The notes under the pieces: generated by a model
Database searches by the model: none
What the model saw: the letters and a program-made list of their open reading frames with translations, nothing else
Told to the model about the DNA's origin: nothing
DNA from: an uncultured Candidatus Saccharibacteria bacterium
Lineage (GTDB): Bacteria; Patescibacteriota; Minisyncoccia; UBA6257; GWB1-50-10
Length of the DNA stretch: 64,000 bases
Reading direction: 5' to 3'
NCBI GenBank assembly: GCA_964489845.1
Contig: CAZAZV010000002.1
Coordinates: forward strand, 770 to 64,769
Program-made: the position numbers and the translations under genes
In this document: piece by piece, positions 14,301-33,261 of the stretch
Position numbering within the stretch: the stretch's first letter is position 1
How the letters are laid out: each line of letters starts with the position of its first letter

Positions 14301-16967
14301 TTAGAGGTTGTTCTTCGTGAATGACTTGGCGGCATTCATAAAGACCCAGTAGCCGTCATGCGTGGAGAGGTCCTTTGCCGGCAATCCGGTAATGGGGTTT
14401 GCGTTCAGGTCTCTGTCCCCGTCGCTCGCCCATGGATTACTGCCGGAATCTTTCCGTGCGTTGTAGGTATCCGGTACGTAGAGCGTTATCATACCGGCCA
14501 CCGTTTCCGTGTTTTGGATGGACGAGAACTCGTCTTGTACCGTACCGGAATTATTCGTCCCGACCAAGTTCCATCCGGCGACGAGGTCTTTGCTTGTCTG
14601 TGACGGCGCACTGCTTGTGTCGGCGTACCTGAACCCTACGCCGCCACCACTATCTACCTTCGTGTAGAACGCGCTGATTGGTTTGACGATGTCCGCGTTA
14701 TCTGCGGCTGGCGAACCGAATGCCCCATTCCCATAAATGAGTAGTGCCACGGTCCCCGTCGCATTGTTATCCACAACCGCAGGTGCTTCAGAGAGAAGTT
14801 TCGGAGCGGAAATTAAAGCCCACGCATCTGCATCGGTGAGAGCGATGGTTTCGTCGTACGTATCTCCATTCGCTTCCAAGAGCCACGGCCGGTAACTGAC
14901 ATCCGCAGAAACCGCTCCGGCGGCAGGACCCGAAGCAGCGCCCCAGTAGTTATCAGTTGCATCAAGTGTTCCGGAACCTCGTGCGGCGTAACCGACCGCA
15001 GCCATCGAATTGTCATAGATACTGTTGTTGTGCACAACCGTCTCCGCGTCAATCGGCTGATTGACATATATCCCAGCAGCATTCCCGTATATCTCATTCC
15101 CCGCTACTGTCACCGCCGAAGAATCGGCGCGTACCGTCGAGGGCAAATTGGTGGTATAGTCGGTATTATCGAACGCAACGCCGGCACCTGCGGTATAGCC
15201 GTGGACTGCGTTGCCCGCTATCGAGGTCGCGTAGAACTGCCCGCCGATACCGGAGCCATTCGCGAGGGAATCGGTGCCTATGACTTCATTGTCAGAAATC
15301 ATACTGCTACTCAAATACCCCGTAATACCGAATTGGGAATTTTCTACTTTGTTGTTGGAGATGGTGGCTCGCGTGAGAACGCCGTCATTGGTATCTGCCG
15401 TATTGGCGTCATTGCCGCCGGTAATCCCACTCGTACCTGCACCTTTCACCAAGTTCTGCTCCACATCAGCTACCTTAGCTTGCCAGAGATTAATGCCATC
15501 AACACTCGCCGACTCAATAATGTTGTTTTTCACAACCACATTGTCCGTGACTCCTCTGACATGAATCGCCTTTGCCGGACTGCCGCCGATTGTGAAACCG
15601 TCGATGGTCACCGTACCAGTTATTGGTCCGAATGGACCGATTTGTACGGACCCGGACGGATCGCCGGAAGAAATGACGGATTCATCACCGCTTCGAGTTC
15701 TCGCATCATTACCTGCCTGTGCGCCGTTCAAGATAAGCGGCTTATTGATATGGAGCGTTTCACTATATGTTCCAGCTGCAACATTAATCGTGTCATCATT
15801 ACCCGCATTTGCAATCGCTTCAGCAATAGTGTTGTATCCGATCTTACTCGTCTCATTGAACGCGTTATAACTACGAGTTATGGAACAATCTGATGTTTCG
15901 CACCAAGGAGAGAACGAGACGGCTCCATCAAGACTGCTAGTTGCTGGGCCGGTCACGCTCCCCCAATAATTATTAGCCGCATTAATAGCTGGGCTTCCAG
16001 CGGTCGTTGAGATATTGTACTCGTTATCTGTAAACCTTACGTTAGTGATGCTAGATAGGATTCCCCCGCCATACGCAAGTACGCCCGCTGCAGTATCATC
16101 GTCAGGTGCATAGTTGAAATTGGAGATGTTTGCACCGGTAACAGACCCCGTAACAGTACCACCACCTCTATTCCACAAAACAATTCCATTCTGCGCAATT
16201 GCATCCGTCGGACCGGCGCCTGTAATGCTGCCACCAAAAACGGTTAAGGTAATGGTGGCATGTACGCCGCTCGTGGCACCATTGCCATTGATGGCATCAA
16301 TGCCGTTCTTCTGGAATCCAGAGATATCGCAATCACTCACGGTCAAATCTGCTGTTTGTTCGTTACCAGCGTCAACCGCTATTCCTTGTCCCGTTTGACT
16401 CCCGTTTATTGTATATGTACCGGCTATGGCACAATTTTCTAAACTACCCGTTGATGCATTCCAGAAAAGAAGAGCATCCGGACCACCGCTACCAGGCGCT
16501 TTCCCATTATCCTTAATACCCAAACTCTGGAGAGTAATATTGGTTGAGCTACTCACCAACACCGATACCTTCATGTTCGCGGTGTACTTGTGGGTAATAC
16601 CACTCGCAACGAGCATCGTCGGTTGTATAACGGTAGAGGACTTTCCAGCACCGATAATTAGTAAATCCGACTTATTGACCACTGAGAAACTTTCGTATTG
16701 ACCGGCTACGACGGTGATTGTATCGCCAGCGGACGCAGCATCAATAGCGGACTGAATCGAGCTGCAAACAGGATCAGTTGCACTGCATGTGCTGGTTGCA
16801 GACGAACCATCGACTGTCCACGACGTTGTCGCCGCTTGCGCAACACCCCCAAGGAACAAAAAACCGCTCACGAGTAACGCTGCGGTTATGATAACTGTAG
16901 AAACTTTGAGAACTGTTGAGTTGAAGAACGAAAAAGATTGTATAAGGGGTTCGCCCAAATGATTCAT
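14301..16967 (-). CDS. Secreted right-handed parallel beta-helix (PbH1) repeat protein, about 889 aa
   Basis: Signal/TM MNHLG...FLGGVAQA; many PbH1-type repeats (NNIIESASVDGINLW, ISNNKVENSQFGITG, GNAVHGYTAGAGVAFDNTDY, HNNSIYDNSMAAVG). Confidence 0.7.
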   Translation of the reverse strand: MNHLGEPLIQSFSFFNSTVLKVSTVIITAALLVSGFLFLGGVAQAATTSWTVDGSSATSTCSATDPVCSSIQSAIDAASAGDTITVVAGQYESFSVVNKSDLLIIGAGKSSTVIQPTMLVASGITHKYTANMKVSVLVSSSTNITLQSLGIKDNGKAPGSGGPDALLFWNASTGSLENCAIAGTYTINGSQTGQGIAVDAGNEQTADLTVSDCDISGFQKNGIDAINGNGATSGVHATITLTVFGGSITGAGPTDAIAQNGIVLWNRGGGTVTGSVTGANISNFNYAPDDDTAAGVLAYGGGILSSITNVRFTDNEYNISTTAGSPAINAANNYWGSVTGPATSSLDGAVSFSPWCETSDCSITRSYNAFNETSKIGYNTIAEAIANAGNDDTINVAAGTYSETLHINKPLILNGAQAGNDARTRSGDESVISSGDPSGSVQIGPFGPITGTVTIDGFTIGGSPAKAIHVRGVTDNVVVKNNIIESASVDGINLWQAKVADVEQNLVKGAGTSGITGGNDANTADTNDGVLTRATISNNKVENSQFGITGYLSSSMISDNEVIGTDSLANGSGIGGQFYATSIAGNAVHGYTAGAGVAFDNTDYTTNLPSTVRADSSAVTVAGNEIYGNAAGIYVNQPIDAETVVHNNSIYDNSMAAVGYAARGSGTLDATDNYWGAASGPAAGAVSADVSYRPWLLEANGDTYDETIALTDADAWALISAPKLLSEAPAVVDNNATGTVALLIYGNGAFGSPAADNADIVKPISAFYTKVDSGGGVGFRYADTSSAPSQTSKDLVAGWNLVGTNNSGTVQDEFSSIQNTETVAGMITLYVPDTYNARKDSGSNPWASDGDRDLNANPITGLPAKDLSTHDGYWVFMNAAKSFTKNNL

Positions 16968-17081
16968 ATTTTTAGGTGCTGTGGGGGCGTTTTGCAGAGA
17001 ACGTTCGACCTGCCATCCCGAGCAAATACCCCGCACATGTGGTGCTGAAATTAAGGAGCACCAAGTTTGGCCTTAGTTACG

Positions 17082-25356: not shown

Positions 25357-27075
25357 TTAGTATACCACACCGCGGATGCGGCGGACGCCGCGCGCGGCAG
25401 ACTCTTCCTTCGTGATTTTAAACGTCCCGATTTCCCCCGTACGCGTCACGTGCGGTCCTCCGCAGAACTCCTTGCTGTAGGCATCCGCAAGTGAGTTTCC
25501 TATGTAGTAGACGGAGACAACGTCGGGATACACGTCCCGCGTCGAGTGGAGCGCTCCTGTCTTTTCCGCCTCCGTCTTCGGCAACTCGATTTTTTGCACC
25601 GGTAAATCCTCGCGTATTTTCCCGTTCACCAATTCCTCCACGCGCGTTTTTTCTTCGTTCGTCAATTTCCGCTCGAAGCCGAAATCGAAGCGCGTCCGCT
25701 CCGGCGTGATGTCGGAACCCTCTTGCGGAATCTCCGCATGGAGCACGTCGCGGAGTGCCTGGTGGAGCAGGTGCGTCACGGTGTGCAAGCGAACGACTCG
25801 TTCCTCTTCCTCGCTCGTCCCCGCTTTCAATTCCCCGGTGTCAAGCGTGAGGCCGTGCCCGCCGAACTTCTTCCCCGCCCCCGCGCGGGAAATTTCCTGG
25901 TGCTTCTCGAATTCCTTGTCGAAATCCTCCCGATGCAGAGCACTCACTTTCGTGCCGCTGACGTCTTTCACGACCTCGTACGGAAGTCCGAAGGTTTGGT
26001 AGAGATAAAACGCGCGCGGCGCGTCGACGACAGCGAATTTTTCCAACTCTTTCAGCCCGCGCTCGAGCGCGGCCGAAAATTCCTCGCGCTCTTTCTCGAA
26101 AACATCGAGCACGAGTTTTTCGTCGAGTTCGCGATACGCCTCGCGGTATGACGCCACGACGGCGCGAAGCAACCGAGGCACATCGAGCCCTCTCCGCTCC
26201 CAAACAATGAGGCGGCGCAGGAGGCGGCGCAGAACGTATCCCGCTTCCTTATTCGACGGCAAGACACCGTCGGATATGAGGAACACAATCCCCCGTCCGT
26301 GGTCCGCGACAATGCGCTGCTCTTTCTCGGACAAGGAATCGGGGAGAAGCGCGATGAGCGGCTTGAAAAGGTCCGTTTCGAAAATCGTGGGGGTACTCTG
26401 CGAAACCATCGTGAGCCGCTCGAGTCCCATGCCGGTATCGACGCCGGATATCGCGAGCGGAGCGAGCCGCTTCTCCACATCGGCATAGAATTCGTTGAAC
26501 ACAATGTTCCACACCTCGAGTCCCCGCACGTACACCTCCGTCGTCGGCCCGCACGGCCCCTCGTTTCCCGTCGGTCCCCAGAATACGTCCGTGCCGTCGC
26601 CGCGGATATCCCGAACCCCGAGTGATTCCCAGATGACACGTGATTCGTCGTCACGAGGAACGTCCTTGCGCCAGTCGCCGTCCGGTACCTTGTCGGGGTC
26701 GAAAATTGTTACATAGTCAATGCTCAGTTTCATCACGTTTGTGATGAAATCGTATGCATATTCAATCGCTTCCTTTTTGAAATATCCGCCGAAGGAAAAG
26801 TTTCCGAGCATCTCAAAGAAGGTGAGGTGACTCTCGTCGCCCACCTCATCAATATCCGATGTGCGGAAACACTTCTGCACCGATGCGACGTTCCTGCTCC
26901 CGAAACGTTTTTTCGCACCGAGTTCTCCCGTGTAGTACCGCTTAAACTGCTGCATCCCCGCAGTAGTGAGGAGCACCGACGCATCGTTGGGTATGAGTGA
27001 CGAAGACGGAACTACGACGTGTCCCTTCTGCTCAAAATACTCGAGAAACTTTTTCCTAATCTCCGCGGACGTCAT
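25357..27075 (-). CDS. alaS: Alanyl-tRNA synthetase, short form (572 aa; catalytic and editing domains, no C-Ala domain)
   Basis: TTAGMQQFK...QKCFRTSDIDEVGDESHLTFFEMLGNFSFGGYFK; editing motifs THLLHQALRDVL and FCGGPH. True start at the internal MTSAEIRK, which shares 1 nt with the rpoD stop (TGATG). Confidence 0.85.
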   Translation of the reverse strand: MTSAEIRKKFLEYFEQKGHVVVPSSSLIPNDASVLLTTAGMQQFKRYYTGELGAKKRFGSRNVASVQKCFRTSDIDEVGDESHLTFFEMLGNFSFGGYFKKEAIEYAYDFITNVMKLSIDYVTIFDPDKVPDGDWRKDVPRDDESRVIWESLGVRDIRGDGTDVFWGPTGNEGPCGPTTEVYVRGLEVWNIVFNEFYADVEKRLAPLAISGVDTGMGLERLTMVSQSTPTIFETDLFKPLIALLPDSLSEKEQRIVADHGRGIVFLISDGVLPSNKEAGYVLRRLLRRLIVWERRGLDVPRLLRAVVASYREAYRELDEKLVLDVFEKEREEFSAALERGLKELEKFAVVDAPRAFYLYQTFGLPYEVVKDVSGTKVSALHREDFDKEFEKHQEISRAGAGKKFGGHGLTLDTGELKAGTSEEEERVVRLHTVTHLLHQALRDVLHAEIPQEGSDITPERTRFDFGFERKLTNEEKTRVEELVNGKIREDLPVQKIELPKTEAEKTGALHSTRDVYPDVVSVYYIGNSLADAYSKEFCGGPHVTRTGEIGTFKITKEESAARGVRRIRGVVY

Positions 27076-28250
27076 CAATATCCCTCCAGGTGCTTCACCT
27101 TCCGGTGCTTCCGAATCTGCTCGATCGCCTTCGCCTCGATCTGCCGTATCCGCTCGCGCGTCACGCCGAAGTCCTTGCCGACTTCTTCCAGGGTGTGCGT
27201 GATGTTGTCCTCGAGCCCGAAGCGCATGGAAAGAATTTTCTGTTCCCGCTCGGTGAGGTCGACGAGAATGTCCCTGATTTGCTCCTTCAAAAGGGCGTAG
27301 TTCGCCTGCTCGTCCGGCGGAATGCTCTGCTCGTCGGGCAAGAGGTCCGAGAGCGTGGAGTCCTCCTCGCTGTCGCCGATGGGCATTTCGAGCGACAACA
27401 CTTCCTGCGAAATTTTCTGGATATACCGCACCTTTTCCACCGGCACGCCCATCTCGACGGCGATTTCCTCGGGGAGCGGCTCGCGCCCCAACTCCTGCAT
27501 CAGCTGCCGCCGCTCCTGCGTATACTTTGTAATCGTCTCCACCATGTGCACGGGGATGCGGATCGTGCGCGAGTAGTCGGCCAAAGCGCGCGTCACCGCC
27601 TGGCGTATCCACCACGTCGCATAGGTCGAGAACTTGAATCCTTTGGTGTAGTCGAATTTCTCGACCGCCCGCGTGAGTCCGATGTTCCCTTCCTGGATAA
27701 GGTCGAGGATGCTCATGTACGGGCTCCGGTTCACGTACCGCTTCGCGATGGACACGACGAGACGCAGGTTCGCCTGCACGAGTTTCTTGCGGGCTTCTTC
27801 GTCGCCCTGCTCGATGCGCTTCGCGAGTTCCTTTTCCTCGCGCGACGTGAGGAGCGGCGTTTCCCCGATCTCTTTCAGGTACATCTGCACGACATCCGGC
27901 ATCCCCTCGCTCGCACGGGTCGCGGCTTTCAATTCCTGCTTGCTTACTTCTTCGCTGTCCGCGGTAACCAGCGGCAGCGCCTCGAGCACTTTCACGCCTT
28001 CCGCTTCCAGTTTCTCGTACACGCTCTCGATAAGGGGGATGTTGCGCTCAATGTACGGGAAGTAGCGGAGTATTTCCACGTCCGTCACGAAACCGCGCTG
28101 CTTCCCCCGTGCGACGAGTGTCGCAAGATTCTCGTCGCGGTCTTCCCCTTCCGGAACGGCAATGTGCTGCTGCGTCTCGTGGCGCTTGAGCCCCGATTCG
28201 CTCTGTGCGGAAAATCCGCACACGCTGCAGATAAATGTTTTCTTAGCCAT
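27075..28250 (-). CDS. rpoD: RNA polymerase sigma-70 factor with N-terminal C2H2-like zinc finger
   Basis: Regions 2 and 4 ([42 protein letters not shown]; [23 protein letters not shown]); N-terminus [24 protein letters not shown]. Confidence 0.88.
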
Positions 28251-31098
28251 TGGTGCGCAACGTATCCAGTTCCCCCGAGAGTTCCGAAAATTGCTTCAGC
28301 AGCCGCTCGCGCTCGGCTTCTCCGATGACGGAAGCGATACGCGATTTGATTTCTTTCTGCTTCACTTTGAGCATCTCGATCCGCAGCTGCCGCATAAGTT
28401 CTTTGAGTTCGTCTGCCAGTTCCTCATGCGGAACATTGTTGAACAAATAACTCGCCTCGAGTTCCAGGAGTCCCCCCTCGGCCGTTCTGCGCAGGAGTAT
28501 GTCCTGGTAATGCTCCGGCAAAAGGTCCTGCTCCGATTCCACTTCAGCATAAAACGAGTCATCGGAGAACGCAACGGTGAGGAGCCGCCGCGCGATGCGG
28601 TCTATGCGTTTCACTTCGGCTTCCTGCGGCGTCTCCGCTTCGACCGGCGCCGGTCCGCCGGCTTTTACGGTCGCGAACGCCTCGCGGAGCATCTGCTCCG
28701 AAATGCCCGCTGCGCGGGAGAGTTCCTTGAGCCACATATCCTGCTCCACGGCGCTCTCAAGGCGCGAGATGAGCCGCAGCATCGTCCCCACCATCCGCTT
28801 CCGCGCCGCGGGGTCGAGCGTGCCGCCGAAACGGACGGCGAAGAGCCGCTTGAACGCGGGTTCGGCTTGCGCGACACGTTTTGCGAACCCCTCCGCGTCT
28901 CTTTCCACAAACTCCGCCGGGTCTTTAAAGGTGCCGAGATCAACCGCCTTGACATAAAAATCGAACGTCCCGAGGAGCTCGAGGGAACGCTCGAGCGCCT
29001 CGATGCCCGCCTCGTCGCTGTCGAAACTCACGACCGCCGTGTCGGTGAGCCGCCGCAACGCGGTGAGATGCGCCGGCGTCAAACTCGTCCCGCACACCGC
29101 GACGGCATTCGTCACGCCCGCCTGGTGCGCCATGAGGGCATCCATATATCCCTCCATGACGAAAACGCTTTTCTGCTGCGCGATGTCCCGCTTCGCCTGC
29201 GAGAACCCGTAGAGGAGTTTCGATTTTTGGAAAATCGGCGTCTCGGGAGAATTCACGTACTTGGGGTTATTGTCGTCGTCCGCGAGCACGCGCCCCGCGA
29301 AACCGACGACCCTGCCGATATTGTTCCAGAGCGGGAACATCACGCGGTTCGCGAAAAAATCTTTGTAGAGTCCTCCTCGCTTCACGGCAAAGCCCGCTTG
29401 GACGAGTGTCTCGATGGAATGTCCTTTGTGGAGGAGGTACACGGTGAGCGCGTCACCACCGGGCGCATAGCCGAGCTCAAAGCGTTTCGCTGTCTCGCCG
29501 GTGAGGCCGCGTCCCTTCAGGTACGCGATCGTTTCCGCGTTCTCTTTTAGCTTGCTCCTGAAGAAGTCCCGCGCGAGCTCGTTCACTTCGTACAATTCGG
29601 CGAAGCGGTGCTCCATGCCGCCCCGGCCGCGCGAAAGTTCGATACCCGCCCGCTCGGCGAGAAGCTGGAGCGCCTCGGGAAACTCAATGCCCTCGTAGAG
29701 CATCACGAACTTGATGACGTCTCCCCCCTGTCCGCAATTCGCCACCGCAAAATGATTTGCTACGTATGAATGGTCTTCGTCGACAGTTAAGTTATAGACA
29801 GGACCGGTATACGGTTCTTTCCACACTTCCTTTACGGGAAGGAGCCAATAACGCCTTCCTTCGACCTCCTCGTATATGAAGCTATGCTGGGACTTCGCCT
29901 CCTCCGACCAGAGGATTCTGTAGACCTCGCGATGATTCACGCCTCGCGCATCGTGCCTTGTCCCCCGAACTCCGAAAGAAGGAAAGAGGTTGTTTCTTAA
30001 GAGTATGTCAATAACCTGCTCAGCAAGAATTCTCGAAATACTCGTGATGCTTTTATGCGTTTTTGTGGAACGACTGAATATACCGGTATGCCCATCGCCT
30101 CTGAAAATGGCATCGACCAGCACCTTCTGCTTTTCTGGAGGTAAAACTTGGAACACAAAGGGTATGTGTTTATACTCTGCTCCCTTGCCGCAAAGATTCT
30201 CAAAAATATTGGCGAGCTGTGCATGGCACGCGGTAATTTCGAGACCTGTTTTCTTTGTCTTGTTCGGATTTCTTTCATAAATCTTCGCTTCAAGTCCGAA
30301 AACGTTTTTCACGAGACGGACGATATCGTCGGCAAATTCCCGCTCATGATTCCCCAAACTGAATCGGATATACGCCCGATGACTGCTTCCCTCAGCTATC
30401 CAATAACCGAGAAGTCTCAGAAAGTCGTCATCAAGGGCAATGTTGAGTGAAATATCCCGCGAATGAGGACCAAACGTATATCCCTTGGTCAAATAGTCAT
30501 TGAGGTCGATGCGGGTCAGTTCGGCAACCGAGTTCTCAATCGGATAAAACACAAAATCGGCCGGTGCAATGCTGCCCGCATTGATTTCGATGATACTTCC
30601 GTGTTGCCGCGCCGCCTCGGAGAGCGTACGGGCCGTGCCCCGCGATACCGCATCGCGGCACAGACGATAAAACTGTTTGGTTTTCTTGCGGTAAGAAGTT
30701 GCGGGTCGCAGAACCTTCAGCTTATGGTCAGCGGTCATGGATACTGTCTCATTAAGTTTTCTCGTTCTCACATGAACTAAATCGCCCACATAATTTCTCA
30801 CATGAGTCGCGAGTACTCTCCGAACCTTCCCCGAACCGGAGTAGACGTAATGATTCTCGTCAATGTCTTCTATGTTATGGAGACCAAAGGGAGTTTTTAC
30901 CTTCTGACCCGGCGGGAAACACCCGAAGCAGTGCCACATCCGTCGCTCGGGAGACACCATGAAGGACGGAGTTTTCTCCTGATGGAAGGGGCAGAGCGCT
31001 TTGTAGTTCTTGCCCGCCGGCCTCAGGTCGATGTATCCCTTTAACACATCGAGAATGTCGGTGCGCTCTTTCACGCGCTCCACGTCAGTTGTTGCCAT
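28243..31098 (-). CDS. dnaG: DNA primase DnaG interrupted by a 395-aa LAGLIDADG intein in the zinc-binding domain
   Basis: Exteins: [24 protein letters not shown] | [12 protein letters not shown], then TOPRIM ([17 protein letters not shown]...SFDSDEAG). Confidence 0.85.
29737..30921 (-). mobile_element. Intein (Cys1 ... Asn395, with a Cys at the following extein position) with a LAGLIDADG homing-endonuclease domain, inserted in the DnaG zinc ribbon
   Basis: Starts CFPPGQKV (block A), TADH (block B), [11 protein letters not shown] and [12 protein letters not shown] (LAGLIDADG blocks), ends ...HFAVAN followed by an extein Cys. Removal restores the HCFGCGQGGD primase consensus. Confidence 0.75.
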
Positions 31099-31173
31099 AC
31101 TGATATTATAGGCAGCCCCATGCCCAAACTCAAAATTATCGGTATCGGATACCCATAAAGTTATCCACAGGCA

Positions 31174-31202
31174 TTGACAAAAATCTGATTATTCGATATA
31201 AT
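31174..31202 (+). promoter_or_regulatory. Perfect consensus sigma70 promoter TTGACA-17-TATAAT
   Basis: TTGACAaaaatctgattattcgaTATAAT about 55 nt upstream of the 31259 ATG, which has a strong AAGGAGGA Shine-Dalgarno site. Confidence 0.6.
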
Positions 31203-31258
31203 ACGAGCAGTAAACCCGACGTTGTCGGGCTTCACAATCAAATACAAGTGCAAGGAGG

Positions 31259-31912
31259 ATGCGGATGGACAAATCGCAATCAATCGGGGCCGTACGCGGT
31301 TCGCAAACAAAACTCGAAGCATGCTTCGATAACCAGCTCAAGACGCTGGAACGGCGCGGCGTGGGAATTACGGTTCTCTCGAAACTCCAGGAACAGAGGA
31401 GCGCCGTCATCGACGAGGCGATTCGCATCATCGGCGGGCTGCCGGACGAAACGGACGATGGTAATTTTCCTTTCATCCCCATCATCCCGCTCACGTATTT
31501 CGGCTACTATGGCCTCGTGACGCTCGCGATGCACGATGCGGAAGAATACATCCAATTCGATGTAAGCGAGATAAGCGACGTTGTGAAAACACCGGAAGAG
31601 CCGTACTACGTCCTCAACGTAGAGGATGGGACAATGACGCGCGGCCTGACGGTGGAGAAGGGGACCAAATTTGTCATCGACCGGGAGAGATTCCCGCTCA
31701 CGACCGTTGAGGCGCTCAGCCTTTCCCTCGTCACGGACGTGCTCACTCGTCACGACATCGCGGCAACGTGCTCACGGCGCAAAAAGGACTTCACCAAGAC
31801 GGCGATGGTACCCCTCATCTCCCAGGACCACCTCGACTGGATACTGGGGTTTATCGGGAAACCGGACTGCGGAACGCCGTCATGCCAGCGCAGGCGCCGC
31901 CCCACCTCCTAA
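31259..31912 (+). CDS. Hypothetical protein (217 aa) with its own consensus promoter and terminator
   Basis: ORF with strong RBS; no recognisable domain. Confidence 0.5.
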   Translation: MRMDKSQSIGAVRGSQTKLEACFDNQLKTLERRGVGITVLSKLQEQRSAVIDEAIRIIGGLPDETDDGNFPFIPIIPLTYFGYYGLVTLAMHDAEEYIQFDVSEISDVVKTPEEPYYVLNVEDGTMTRGLTVEKGTKFVIDRERFPLTTVEALSLSLVTDVLTRHDIAATCSRRKKDFTKTAMVPLISQDHLDWILGFIGKPDCGTPSCQRRRRPTS

Positions 31913-31921
31913 TGTGCTAAA

Positions 31922-31948
31922 GGCAGGCCATCACCGACCTGCCTTTTT
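31922..31948 (+). terminator. Rho-independent terminator
   Basis: ggcagg-ccatcaccga-cctgcc followed by TTTTT. Confidence 0.6.
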
Positions 31949-31953
31949 CATAT

Positions 31954-32406
31954 TTACGCCTCGAGTGTTTTGAAAACGACTTTCCCGGAGTAGTCGAGCG
32001 CGTCTTCCGCCTTGATTTTCTGGAGCGGCGGGAGGTTTGAAACAGGAACAAATTTATATTCTGAATGTTCGTGACTCAACGTGATGTGGCTCATATCTGA
32101 AACGGCGCATGTGAAAACCGCAAGCTGTGTATGGATGCGGGGAAGGAAGTAGATGCCGGTGAGCGTCTTCGGCTCGACGTCGAGTCCCGTCTCTTCCCGA
32201 CACTCGCGCTTGAGCGCCTTATGGAGCGTTTCCGTTTTCTCCGCCGCGCCGCCGGGCAAACCCCACTCGTCATCGTACGAACTGTGCAGGAGGAGAATTT
32301 CTCCGGCGCTATTCATGATAACTCCCTGCACGGCGAGGCCGGGCGGCGAGAGGCGCGCAACGAGGTCTCCGAAGAGATATACCATGCGCTTCAATACGTG
32401 TTTCAT
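31954..32406 (-). CDS. NUDIX hydrolase
   Basis: Nudix box GLPGGAAEKTETLHKALKRECREETGL. Confidence 0.8.
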   Translation of the reverse strand: MKHVLKRMVYLFGDLVARLSPPGLAVQGVIMNSAGEILLLHSSYDDEWGLPGGAAEKTETLHKALKRECREETGLDVEPKTLTGIYFLPRIHTQLAVFTCAVSDMSHITLSHEHSEYKFVPVSNLPPLQKIKAEDALDYSGKVVFKTLEA

Positions 32407-32426
32407 AACCTCGATGCTATGCGGTT

Positions 32427-32657
32427 TTATAATGTCTCCAAAATTTCCAAATACTGCTCGCGGGTTATATTCAGGATACGGAGATTGTTGCGGATAACAA
32501 AAACCGGCAGCGTACTATCTTGCGGAACCACTACCGGTCTCTTAACGTCTTCACGGCGATAGATGCGATGGTCTCCCTTCTCACGAACAAACACGCAACC
32601 GACCCGGAGTAAAAATTTCTCGAACGTTTTCCAATCGACAGGACGAATCCTTGGCAT
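32427..32657 (-). CDS. hicA: HicA-family (YcfA-like) toxin
   Basis: 76 aa; FEKFLLRVGCVFVREKGDHRIYRR...PVVVPQ matches the HicA pattern; directly downstream of a HicB-like gene. Confidence 0.6.
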   Translation of the reverse strand: MPRIRPVDWKTFEKFLLRVGCVFVREKGDHRIYRREDVKRPVVVPQDSTLPVFVIRNNLRILNITREQYLEILETL

Positions 32658-32663
32658 CCTACA

Positions 32664-32945
32664 CTATGCGCAAACCGCAACCGAGACGGGTTCAGAACCC
32701 TGTGAGACAATTTCCGGCGGCTGCCAATTTCGCTCCAGCTTCTTCCAACCAAGCTCCGAGAGCACTTCATCAAGCGTTCCCATCTTGACCAATTCTTCAA
32801 AGAAAAGGCGGACCGCTTCGCCAAATCGTTGCTTCACCTGCATCTCACTCTCTCCCGACGTAGACAAATCCAAAGCGGGTGTATATGCCACATATCGCCC
32901 CTCTTCTTTTAAAACCGAAACCGGCAAAACGCAACGCATTTCCAT
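32664..32945 (-). CDS. hicB: HicB-family antitoxin (UPF0150 N-terminal domain)
   Basis: LKEEGRYVAYTPALDLSTSGESEMQVKQRFGEAVRLFFEEL. Confidence 0.6.
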   Translation of the reverse strand: MEMRCVLPVSVLKEEGRYVAYTPALDLSTSGESEMQVKQRFGEAVRLFFEELVKMGTLDEVLSELGWKKLERNWQPPEIVSQGSEPVSVAVCA

Positions 32946-33000
32946 AAGCTTAACTATATCATAAAAGTCTTAATTTTCAACGTACCCTTCATAAGTCAAA

Positions 33001-33027
33001 AAACCGCCGGTCTCTCGGCGGTTTTCA
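33001..33027 (-). terminator. Terminator of the rpsL-rpsG-fusA operon
   Basis: aaaaccgccgg-tctct-cggcggtttt, T/A-rich on both sides. Confidence 0.6.
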
Positions 33028-33049
33028 ATATAAACGTAGTTCGTAAAAA

Positions 33050-33125
33050 CTACTGTCCGACAATACTCTCGGCAATGTTTCTTGGCACAATGCCGTAGTG
33101 CGAGAATTCCATATTGAACGTCGTC
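33050..33125 (-). pseudogene. Diverged remnant of a fusA 3' end (last about 25 codons: ...[24 protein letters not shown])
   Basis: 42 nt identical to the true fusA 3' end, then about 75% identity to the stop codon. Confidence 0.7.
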
Positions 33126-33261
33126 GTCCCGCCAGGGCGGGACTCCTCCCCATAGGGCTTCAGCCCTCTGGTGTCACTCGCTTCGCTCGTTCCAGTCACC
33201 CCAAGCGGGGAAACTACAGTTTCCCCGACCCCCTTCGCACGTTCAATACGGTAAGTCCCTG
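33126..33261 (-). repeat. Family-1 structured miniature element, copy R, immediately downstream of the fusA stop
   Basis: About 135 nt with hairpins (gtcccgccctggcgggac; ggggaaactacagtttcccc) and a T-loop-like end cgttcaatacgg; about 70% identical to copies at 35392-35544 (inverted) and 45866-46035. Confidence 0.65.

Follow-up and report, generated by a model that had tools for sequence, protein, structure and literature searches.

Introduction

Inteins that carry a homing endonuclease and have solved structures include TliVMA and PhoVMA (7qsu, 7qss, 7qst), PI-SceI (1vde), PI-PkoII (2cw7) and PI-PfuI (1dq3). In these proteins a Hint domain is split by a two-motif LAGLIDADG endonuclease; they have Cys1, a TxxH motif, a terminal Asn and a Cys at position +1 of the downstream host sequence (C-extein), and they interrupt an essential protein, V-ATPase or DNA polymerase, at a functional site that is conserved. 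Inteins are also known from the bacterial primase DnaG (COG0358). A survey that counted 14 of them, in Actinobacteria and Proteobacteria, placed DnaG among the 15 proteins that most often host inteins in bacteria (Novikova et al., 2016, PMC4760082), and reviews tabulate it as an intein host as well. In addition, DnaG-like/TOPRIM primases host inteins in actinophages, where they have been assigned to the TOPRIM/primase domain (PMC5050341; bioRxiv 10.1101/2025.01.02.630785).

Here we describe an intein of 395 amino acids (aa) in the zinc ribbon of DnaG, encoded in a stretch of 64,000 nucleotides (referred to as the window) from an uncultured Candidatus Saccharibacteria bacterium (assembly GCA_964489845.1, contig CAZAZV010000002.1, positions 770 to 64,769). 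The intein was first proposed in a sequence-only reading of the window, which also held that inteins are uncommon in DnaG, a view that the published counts given above do not support. The window intein has the domain arrangement, the catalytic residues and the kind of insertion site of the solved inteins. Unlike them, it is hosted by the DnaG zinc ribbon, has Ala as its penultimate residue and Asn at position 4 of block F (F:4), and shares only 12-18% identity with them. With the published DnaG and DnaG-like primase inteins it has in common a primase-family host that belongs to the replisome cluster of intein hosts. It appears to be set apart from those inteins by its position in the zinc ribbon and by its occurrence in Candidate Phyla Radiation (CPR)/Patescibacteria and Omnitrophota.

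Anatomy and class of the DnaG intein

The precursor and the intein within it comprise the following features.

28243..31098, minus strand: dnaG precursor open reading frame (ORF), 951 aa plus stop, consisting of N-extein, intein and C-extein in an uninterrupted frame
30922..31098, minus strand: N-extein (59 aa), initial portion of the CHC2 zinc ribbon by alignment to 2au3
30991..30993, minus strand: zinc ligand Cys36, by alignment to the CHC2 motif
30982..30984, minus strand: zinc ligand His39, by alignment to the CHC2 motif
30928..30930, minus strand: zinc ligand Cys57, by alignment to the CHC2 motif; position -3 relative to the intein
29737..30921, minus strand: class 1 intein, 395 aa, with embedded LAGLIDADG homing endonuclease; precursor residues 60-454, CFPPGQKV ... 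HFAVAN
30919..30921, minus strand: block A Cys1, nucleophile of splicing step 1; invariant in the homologue alignment and in 164/164 full-length related inteins
30724..30735, minus strand: block B, TADH (Thr63, His66), both residues invariant in the homologue alignment
30382..30414, minus strand: LAGLIDADG motif 1, LLGYWIAEG, with catalytic Glu177; G172, A176, E177 and G178 invariant; within a Pfam LAGLIDADG_3 match
30082..30117, minus strand: LAGLIDADG motif 2, AIFRGDG, with catalytic Asp276; G275 and D276 nearly invariant, G277 invariant
29761..29799, minus strand: block F, with F:4 = Asn377 and F:13 = His384 (in DHSY)
29737..29760, minus strand: block G, ANHFAVAN, with penultimate Ala394 and terminal Asn395
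29734..29736, minus strand: Cys+1, first residue of the C-extein, nucleophile of step 2 and fourth zinc ligand
28243..29736, minus strand: C-extein, comprising the rest of the zinc-binding domain, RNA-polymerase core, TOPRIM, C-terminal domain and stop, by Pfam and alignment to 2au3

Retranslation reproduced exactly the coordinates and the length of the insertion given in the sequence-only reading, and all of the motifs quoted there (CFPPGQKV, TADH, the two LAGLIDADG blocks, HFAVAN and the extein Cys) were read again at their coordinates. The N-extein ends in MWHCFG, and deletion of the insertion joins HCFG to CGQGGD, which restores the universal HCFGCGxGGD motif, as had been claimed. In the alignment of the spliced product of 556 aa to Aquifex aeolicus DnaG (2au3; E 2.7e-71), no gap occurs across the junction, and the product also aligned through the junction to the Bacillus zinc-binding domain 1d0q. 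In the unspliced precursor, the NCBIfam dnaG equivalog TIGR01391 matched with 386.5 bits (cut-off 283.6) in two stretches that are split at residue 59/60, and the Pfam domains Zn_ribbon_DnaG, DNAG_N, Toprim and DnaB_bind were found. By this domain content, the host protein is a genuine bacterial DnaG, with a CHC2 zinc ribbon, an RNA-polymerase core, TOPRIM and a helicase-binding C-terminus.

Profile hidden Markov models identified the insertion from both of its ends and from its center. The TIGR01445 (intein_Nterm) model scored 24.9 bits on the isolated intein (cut-off 24.5) and a sub-threshold 22.1 bits on the whole precursor, TIGR01443 (intein_Cterm) scored 22.3-24.5 bits (cut-off 15.6), and Pfam LAGLIDADG_3 scored 49.4 bits (cut-off 22.5; E 5.7e-13). 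These scores show that the likeness to inteins did not arise by chance. In an alignment of homologues that are 26-66% identical, Lys251, Asn395 and the flanking Cys+1 are invariant along with Cys1, Thr63, His66, Glu177 and Gly277, and Asp276 is nearly so; the terminal Asn is present in all 164 related inteins.

This assignment was supported by structure comparison. The best sequence match among Protein Data Bank (PDB) structures was PI-PkoII (E 4e-05). An AlphaFold2 model of the intein, built on 17 homologues, had a predicted local distance difference test score (pLDDT) of 92.3 and a predicted TM-score (pTM) of 0.91. Foldseek ranked the TliVMA intein 7qsu (E 2.7e-22) first among the PDB matches of this model, with PI-SceI, PhoVMA, PI-PkoII and PI-PfuI next, and the E values to solved endonuclease-bearing inteins ranged from 2.7e-22 to 5e-11. 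Query TM-scores (TMq) to whole inteins were 0.5-0.68, the Hint part also matched mini-inteins such as the Prp8 intein 6mx6, and the central domain matched the free-standing LAGLIDADG enzymes I-DmoI, I-SceI and I-Tsp061I (E 2e-06 to 1e-04).

The intein is assigned to class 1 because Cys1 is present and the Trp-Cys-Thr triplet of blocks B, F and G is absent. Class 3 was ruled out, since the intein has Cys1, F:4 is Asn and G:5 is Val. Thus, we conclude that the insertion is a class 1 intein consisting of a Hint domain and a two-motif LAGLIDADG endonuclease, and we hold with high confidence the whole explanation, in which it would splice and home as set out below. An intein-family profile run against all six-frame ORFs of the window matched the dnaG copy only, and no other inteins were found there.

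Empty sites, base composition and signs of mobility

The DnaG orthologues closest to the window protein are intein-free and 561-577 aa long (P0030, 74% identity; P0031 and P0032, 63%). Among the 120 best DnaG orthologues, 3 are of intein-containing size and the site is empty in 117. At the locus of P0030 (L001), the DNA reads CAT TGT TTT GGA-TGC AAT, compared to CAC TGC TTC GGG-intein-TGC GGA in the window (here and below, hyphens within sequences mark the insertion point or splice junctions). The empty site of L001, CGGCGGATGTGGCATTGTTTTGGA followed by TGCAATCTCGGGGGCGATGTCATC, lies at the same codon boundary as the window insertion. The insertion site proposed in the sequence-only reading was thus confirmed by alignment to intein-free DnaG, both 2au3 and L001. 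The window protein itself is identical to a public NCBI entry (P0029).

The base composition of the intein differs from that of its host gene. The intein has a GC content of 0.48 and a GC content at third codon positions (GC3) of 0.52, whereas both exteins have a GC3 of 0.76. GC3 is 0.62-0.81 in seven of the eight other window genes checked, and 0.52 in the eighth, the ORF at 14301..17036. Given the GC3 gap of 0.24 to its own exteins, the intein looks recently acquired by the window dnaG.

Comparison among carriers also points to movement of the intein between hosts. The window intein is 64-66% identical to the inteins of P0126 and P0139, yet the exteins of these two proteins share only 46% identity with those of the window. 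Across 58 carriers, intein and extein identity were weakly correlated (Spearman 0.37), and in 216 pairs the inteins were more similar than the exteins by more than 10 points. Decay of the endonuclease was seen in two relatives: a deletion removes the second LAGLIDADG motif from the DnaG allele P0014, and the second catalytic Asp is replaced by Asn in P0026, a more distant intein in a protein annotated with PF01592 (NifU/IscU-like). Such decay is as expected in a homing cycle.

Distribution of the zinc-ribbon allele

Each GTDB species was represented by one genome in a scan that returned 236 relatives of the intein, and the best 80 were inspected. Among these 80, the same site is occupied in at least 69 species genomes (loci L002-L070), with the junction pattern CFG-C...N-C(G/Q/S/D/H)xGGD. 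The presence of an intact intein at one site in 69 species genomes speaks for selection on its function. By record title, the carriers are mostly Patescibacteria/CPR, with many labelled Saccharibacteria, and several are Omnitrophota. Microgenomates-type carriers include Levy-, Davies-, Woese-, Shapiro-, Collier-, Beckwith- and Chisholmbacteria, and Parcubacteria-type carriers include Harrison-, Colwell-, Magasanik- and Nealsonbacteria. When 1.84 billion representative proteins were searched with a profile, there were 33,328 matches at E <=0.001, which represent the broad intein and LAGLIDADG family; among the matches listed, approximately 17 are full-length intein-bearing DnaGs that are 959-1021 aa long and have the intein at residues 58-61. 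In all, approximately 95 same-site inteins were collected, 68 of them complete sequences from genomes and 26 from protein sets. The allele thus circulates widely among CPR/Patescibacteria and Omnitrophota, lineages that are known for intron-encoded LAGLIDADG endonucleases in rRNA genes.

Two carriers are labelled as archaea, L050 as Pacearchaeota and P0023 as Aenigmarchaeota, and both encode a bacterial-type zinc-ribbon DnaG with the same intein. These DPANN-labelled carriers reflect either mis-binned CPR contigs or cross-domain presence of the allele. Four loci (L060, L061, L065 and L070) have an extra residue before Cys1 (HCFGG-C, HCFGS-C or HCFGA-C) and thus a CX3C knuckle. We rejected a shifted or non-Cys N-terminal junction in these loci. 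The CX3C knuckle (HCFGSCG, YCFGACG, HCFGGCG) occurs in CPR DnaGs with and without the intein, including 10 of 120 intein-free ones, and the intein always lies directly before the second Cys.

Beyond this allele, distant relatives (L071-L081; 27-29% identity, ending in HN-CTAP) occupy another host gene in Armatimonadota, Bipolaricaulota, Nitrososphaerota and Gammaproteobacteria, and the L081 ORF contains two inteins. Five proteins of 3000-4900 aa (P0149-P0152 and P0168) contain 4-11 matched intein/LAGLIDADG stretches each, that is, many inteins per polypeptide.

A literature search found no paper on an intein site in the DnaG zinc ribbon or on DnaG inteins of CPR bacteria, nor one describing inteins of CPR/Patescibacteria and Omnitrophota. 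The sequence-only reading had presented the window allele as adding a new insertion point. The zinc-ribbon site indeed lacks a published description that we could find, but it is occupied in at least 69 species genomes and the window protein was already in NCBI. It is fair, if modest, to call this an undescribed allele of a well-known kind of element, whose mechanism is not new. The list of replisome intein sites gains a well-supported entry, located immediately before the last of the four zinc ligands in the zinc ribbon of DnaG. In public records the carriers are labelled 'CHC2 zinc finger domain-containing protein', 'LAGLIDADG family homing endonuclease' or 'hypothetical protein', and such proteins of 950-1000 aa should be annotated as intein-containing DnaG.

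Absence of the penultimate His and retention of a block F His

Several inteins that lack the penultimate His are known to splice, including archaeal examples (Chen, Benner and Perler, 2000) and the Ssp DnaE intein (Sun et al., 2005). Mycobacteriophage inteins have Gly, Lys or Ser at this position (G:6), and a block F His has been proposed as the substitute (PMC5050341). The window intein resembles these in being of class 1 with a non-His residue at G:6. The typical His is absent and is replaced by Ala394, as the sequence-only reading had stated. Its description of the C-terminal junction as non-canonical stands insofar as Ala394 is real, but splicing without the penultimate His was already documented.

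Unlike the Ssp DnaE, archaeal and mycobacteriophage cases, the loss in DnaG is fixed throughout the allele. His was found at G:6 in none of the 68 complete same-site inteins from genomes and in none of the 26 from protein sets, the residues there being A, G, S, N or K. In contrast to this loss, the His at F:13 is kept in 67/68 and 24/26 of these inteins, respectively. In host genes other than dnaG, the closest inteins terminate in HN-C, often without the F:13 His. A comparison of 138 related inteins from other hosts found His at F:13 in 19/22 of those that have a non-His G:6 residue, compared to 41/116 of those that have His at G:6 (Fisher p = 1e-5; p = 6e-11 with the DnaG copies added; these counts ignore shared ancestry). 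This pattern agrees with the published proposal that a block F His takes over (PMC5050341), and His384 (F:13) probably replaces the penultimate His in Asn cyclisation in the window intein. The approximately 95 members of the allele constitute a natural series that lacks the penultimate His and almost always keeps the block F His, and they provide material for studying the catalysis of Asn cyclisation.

Proposed splicing and homing mechanism

Splicing of the DnaG precursor would begin with an N-S acyl shift of Cys1 at the Gly59-Cys1 bond, with help from the block B residues Thr63 and His66. The thioester would next be attacked by Cys+1 in a trans-thioesterification that gives a branched intermediate. 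Asn395 would then cyclise and release the intein, with the block F residue His384 probably acting in place of the penultimate His. A final S-N shift would yield HCFG-CGQGGD and restore the CxxC zinc ribbon and an active, zinc-competent primase of 556 aa. The free intein is probably an active endonuclease, which would cut intein-free dnaG at the conserved HCFG-CG site and be copied in by repair. Homing of this kind would explain why the allele is patchily distributed and why its base composition is foreign. In the presumed homing recognition region, the first and second codon positions are conserved across carriers.

Evidence against this mechanism and alternative explanations

Several points weigh against an intein that splices and homes. 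The Pfam Intein_splicing model (PF14890) scored 24.6 bits, which is below its gathering cut-off of 35.8; this model spans the inserted endonuclease poorly, and the NCBIfam terminal models pass. F:4 is Asn and not the commoner Asp, yet Asn is the majority residue in the related clade (119/164). The counts that relate F:13 to G:6 carry no correction for shared ancestry. No close copy of the dnaG allele was found in the viral collections (IMG/VR and the GenBank phage set), which contained only relatives of <=29% identity in other genes, such as those for portal protein, DNA polymerase and ribonucleotide reductase. The data come from one 64-kb window, so a second, intein-free dnaG may be present elsewhere in the genome. 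Finally, we infer splicing and DNA cleavage by members of this allele from sequence and fold. For splicing, this reasoning draws on catalytic residues that are intact, on a host gene that is essential and on conservation in at least 69 genomes.

If the 395 aa were a lineage-specific insertion domain of DnaG and not an intein, the presence of an insertion would be accounted for, and nothing else would. This explanation is refuted, with practically no probability left to it, by the matches to intein and LAGLIDADG profiles, the intein fold, the empty site in 117/120 of the closest orthologues and the homologous inteins in unrelated host proteins. Another reading is that splicing is impossible, with neither a penultimate His nor Asp at F:4, and that dnaG is a disrupted gene or pseudogene. 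Ala394 and the sub-threshold Intein_splicing score speak for this reading. However, the frame is unbroken over 951 codons and lies in a conserved dnaG-rpoD operon, the exteins are normal in GC3 and conservation, the non-His junction is kept in approximately 95 diverged copies with all nucleophiles intact, and inteins of this type are known to splice. We therefore reject the pseudogene reading, which we regard as very improbable.

It is also conceivable that the intein splices but that its endonuclease is dead, so that the element persists by vertical descent only. The decay in P0014 and P0026 shows that endonucleases of this family can be lost, and the failure to find a phage or other vector that carries the allele in IMG/VR or the GenBank phage set is consistent with descent without transfer. 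In the window copy, however, catalytic Glu177 and Asp276 and the invariant Lys251 are intact, and the GC3 gap to the exteins indicates a recent arrival, which argues against a dead endonuclease. Vertical descent is further disfavored by the empty sites of the closest orthologues and by an intein that is closer than its extein to those of distant carriers. We consider this explanation unlikely, and favor an intein that both splices and retains an active endonuclease.

Possible zinc- or redox-conditional splicing

A Cys at -3 that pairs with Cys1 is a known redox trap, which has been engineered in Ssp DnaE and is native in Pyrococcus abyssi MoaA (Callahan et al., 2011, as reviewed in PMC3922620 and PMC10663303). 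Moreover, zinc is a reversible inhibitor of several inteins, including mycobacterial DnaB in vivo (PMC10663303). The DnaG precursor reads Cys57(-3)-Phe-Gly-Cys1, such that the N-extein Cys at -3 and Cys1 form a CxxC, as in MoaA and engineered Ssp DnaE. Unlike in those proteins, this CxxC is half of a zinc site, so that not only oxidation but also zinc could engage Cys1. The insertion site itself dictates the layout in nearly all carriers, with Cys at -4 in the four CX3C carriers. In an AlphaFold2 model of precursor residues 1-500, the split zinc-binding domain is folded around the intein (residues 1-59 and 455-490; block pLDDT approximately 71-88).

These observations raise the possibility that the intein is also a switch for conditional splicing, in which zinc bound by Cys36/His39/Cys57/Cys1, or a Cys-3/Cys1 disulfide, would tie up the thiol of Cys1 and so delay maturation of the primase until a change in conditions. 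Such a switch would add to the splicing and homing explanation, and both can hold. We judge it improbable. The Cys-3 geometry is automatic for an insertion before the second Cys of any CxxC and need not reflect regulatory selection, and a redox trigger is less obvious in mostly anaerobic hosts. The host lineages are mostly anaerobic bacteria of groundwater and sediment. The broader idea that splicing, and hence primase activation and replication, would be gated by zinc or redox state through Cys1, with loss of the penultimate His and retention of the block F His as a possible adaptation, seems somewhat less probable still. The Cys-3/Cys1 zinc-knuckle junction lends itself to tests of whether splicing can depend on metal or redox conditions.

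Gene neighborhood of the window dnaG

The gene directly downstream of dnaG overlaps its stop codon.

27075..28250, minus strand: rpoD (sigma-70)

The gene order dnaG, rpoD, alaS is the same in the window and in L001, the intein-free closest relative, and dnaG of the window is in a conserved dnaG-rpoD operon. The alaS ORF (25357..27615, minus strand, 752 aa) has a GTG start and overlaps rpoD by approximately 540 bases. Its Pfam match extends from residue 185 on, its L001 orthologue is 580 aa, and the true start is probably well downstream of the called GTG. When the window was scanned for Rfam families and tRNAs, a single tRNA-Gly was detected and nothing relevant to the intein.

The low-GC3 ORF at 14301..17036 (minus strand) encodes a protein of 911 aa with a right-handed beta-helix domain. 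Its GC3 is as low as that of the intein and far below that of most of its neighbors, and it may also have been horizontally acquired.

The stretch between dnaG and fusA (EF-G), at 31100..33260 of the window, is unlike that of the closest relative (L001, 2600..6000). In the window it contains a weak DUF5701-like ORF (31259..31912, plus strand), a NUDIX hydrolase gene (31954..32406, minus strand) and a 93-aa ORF without a family, whereas L001 instead encodes Ham1, GreA and a histidine phosphatase. GC content falls to 0.46-0.51 around 32400..33150 of the window, and the dnaG-fusA stretch may be a variable island.

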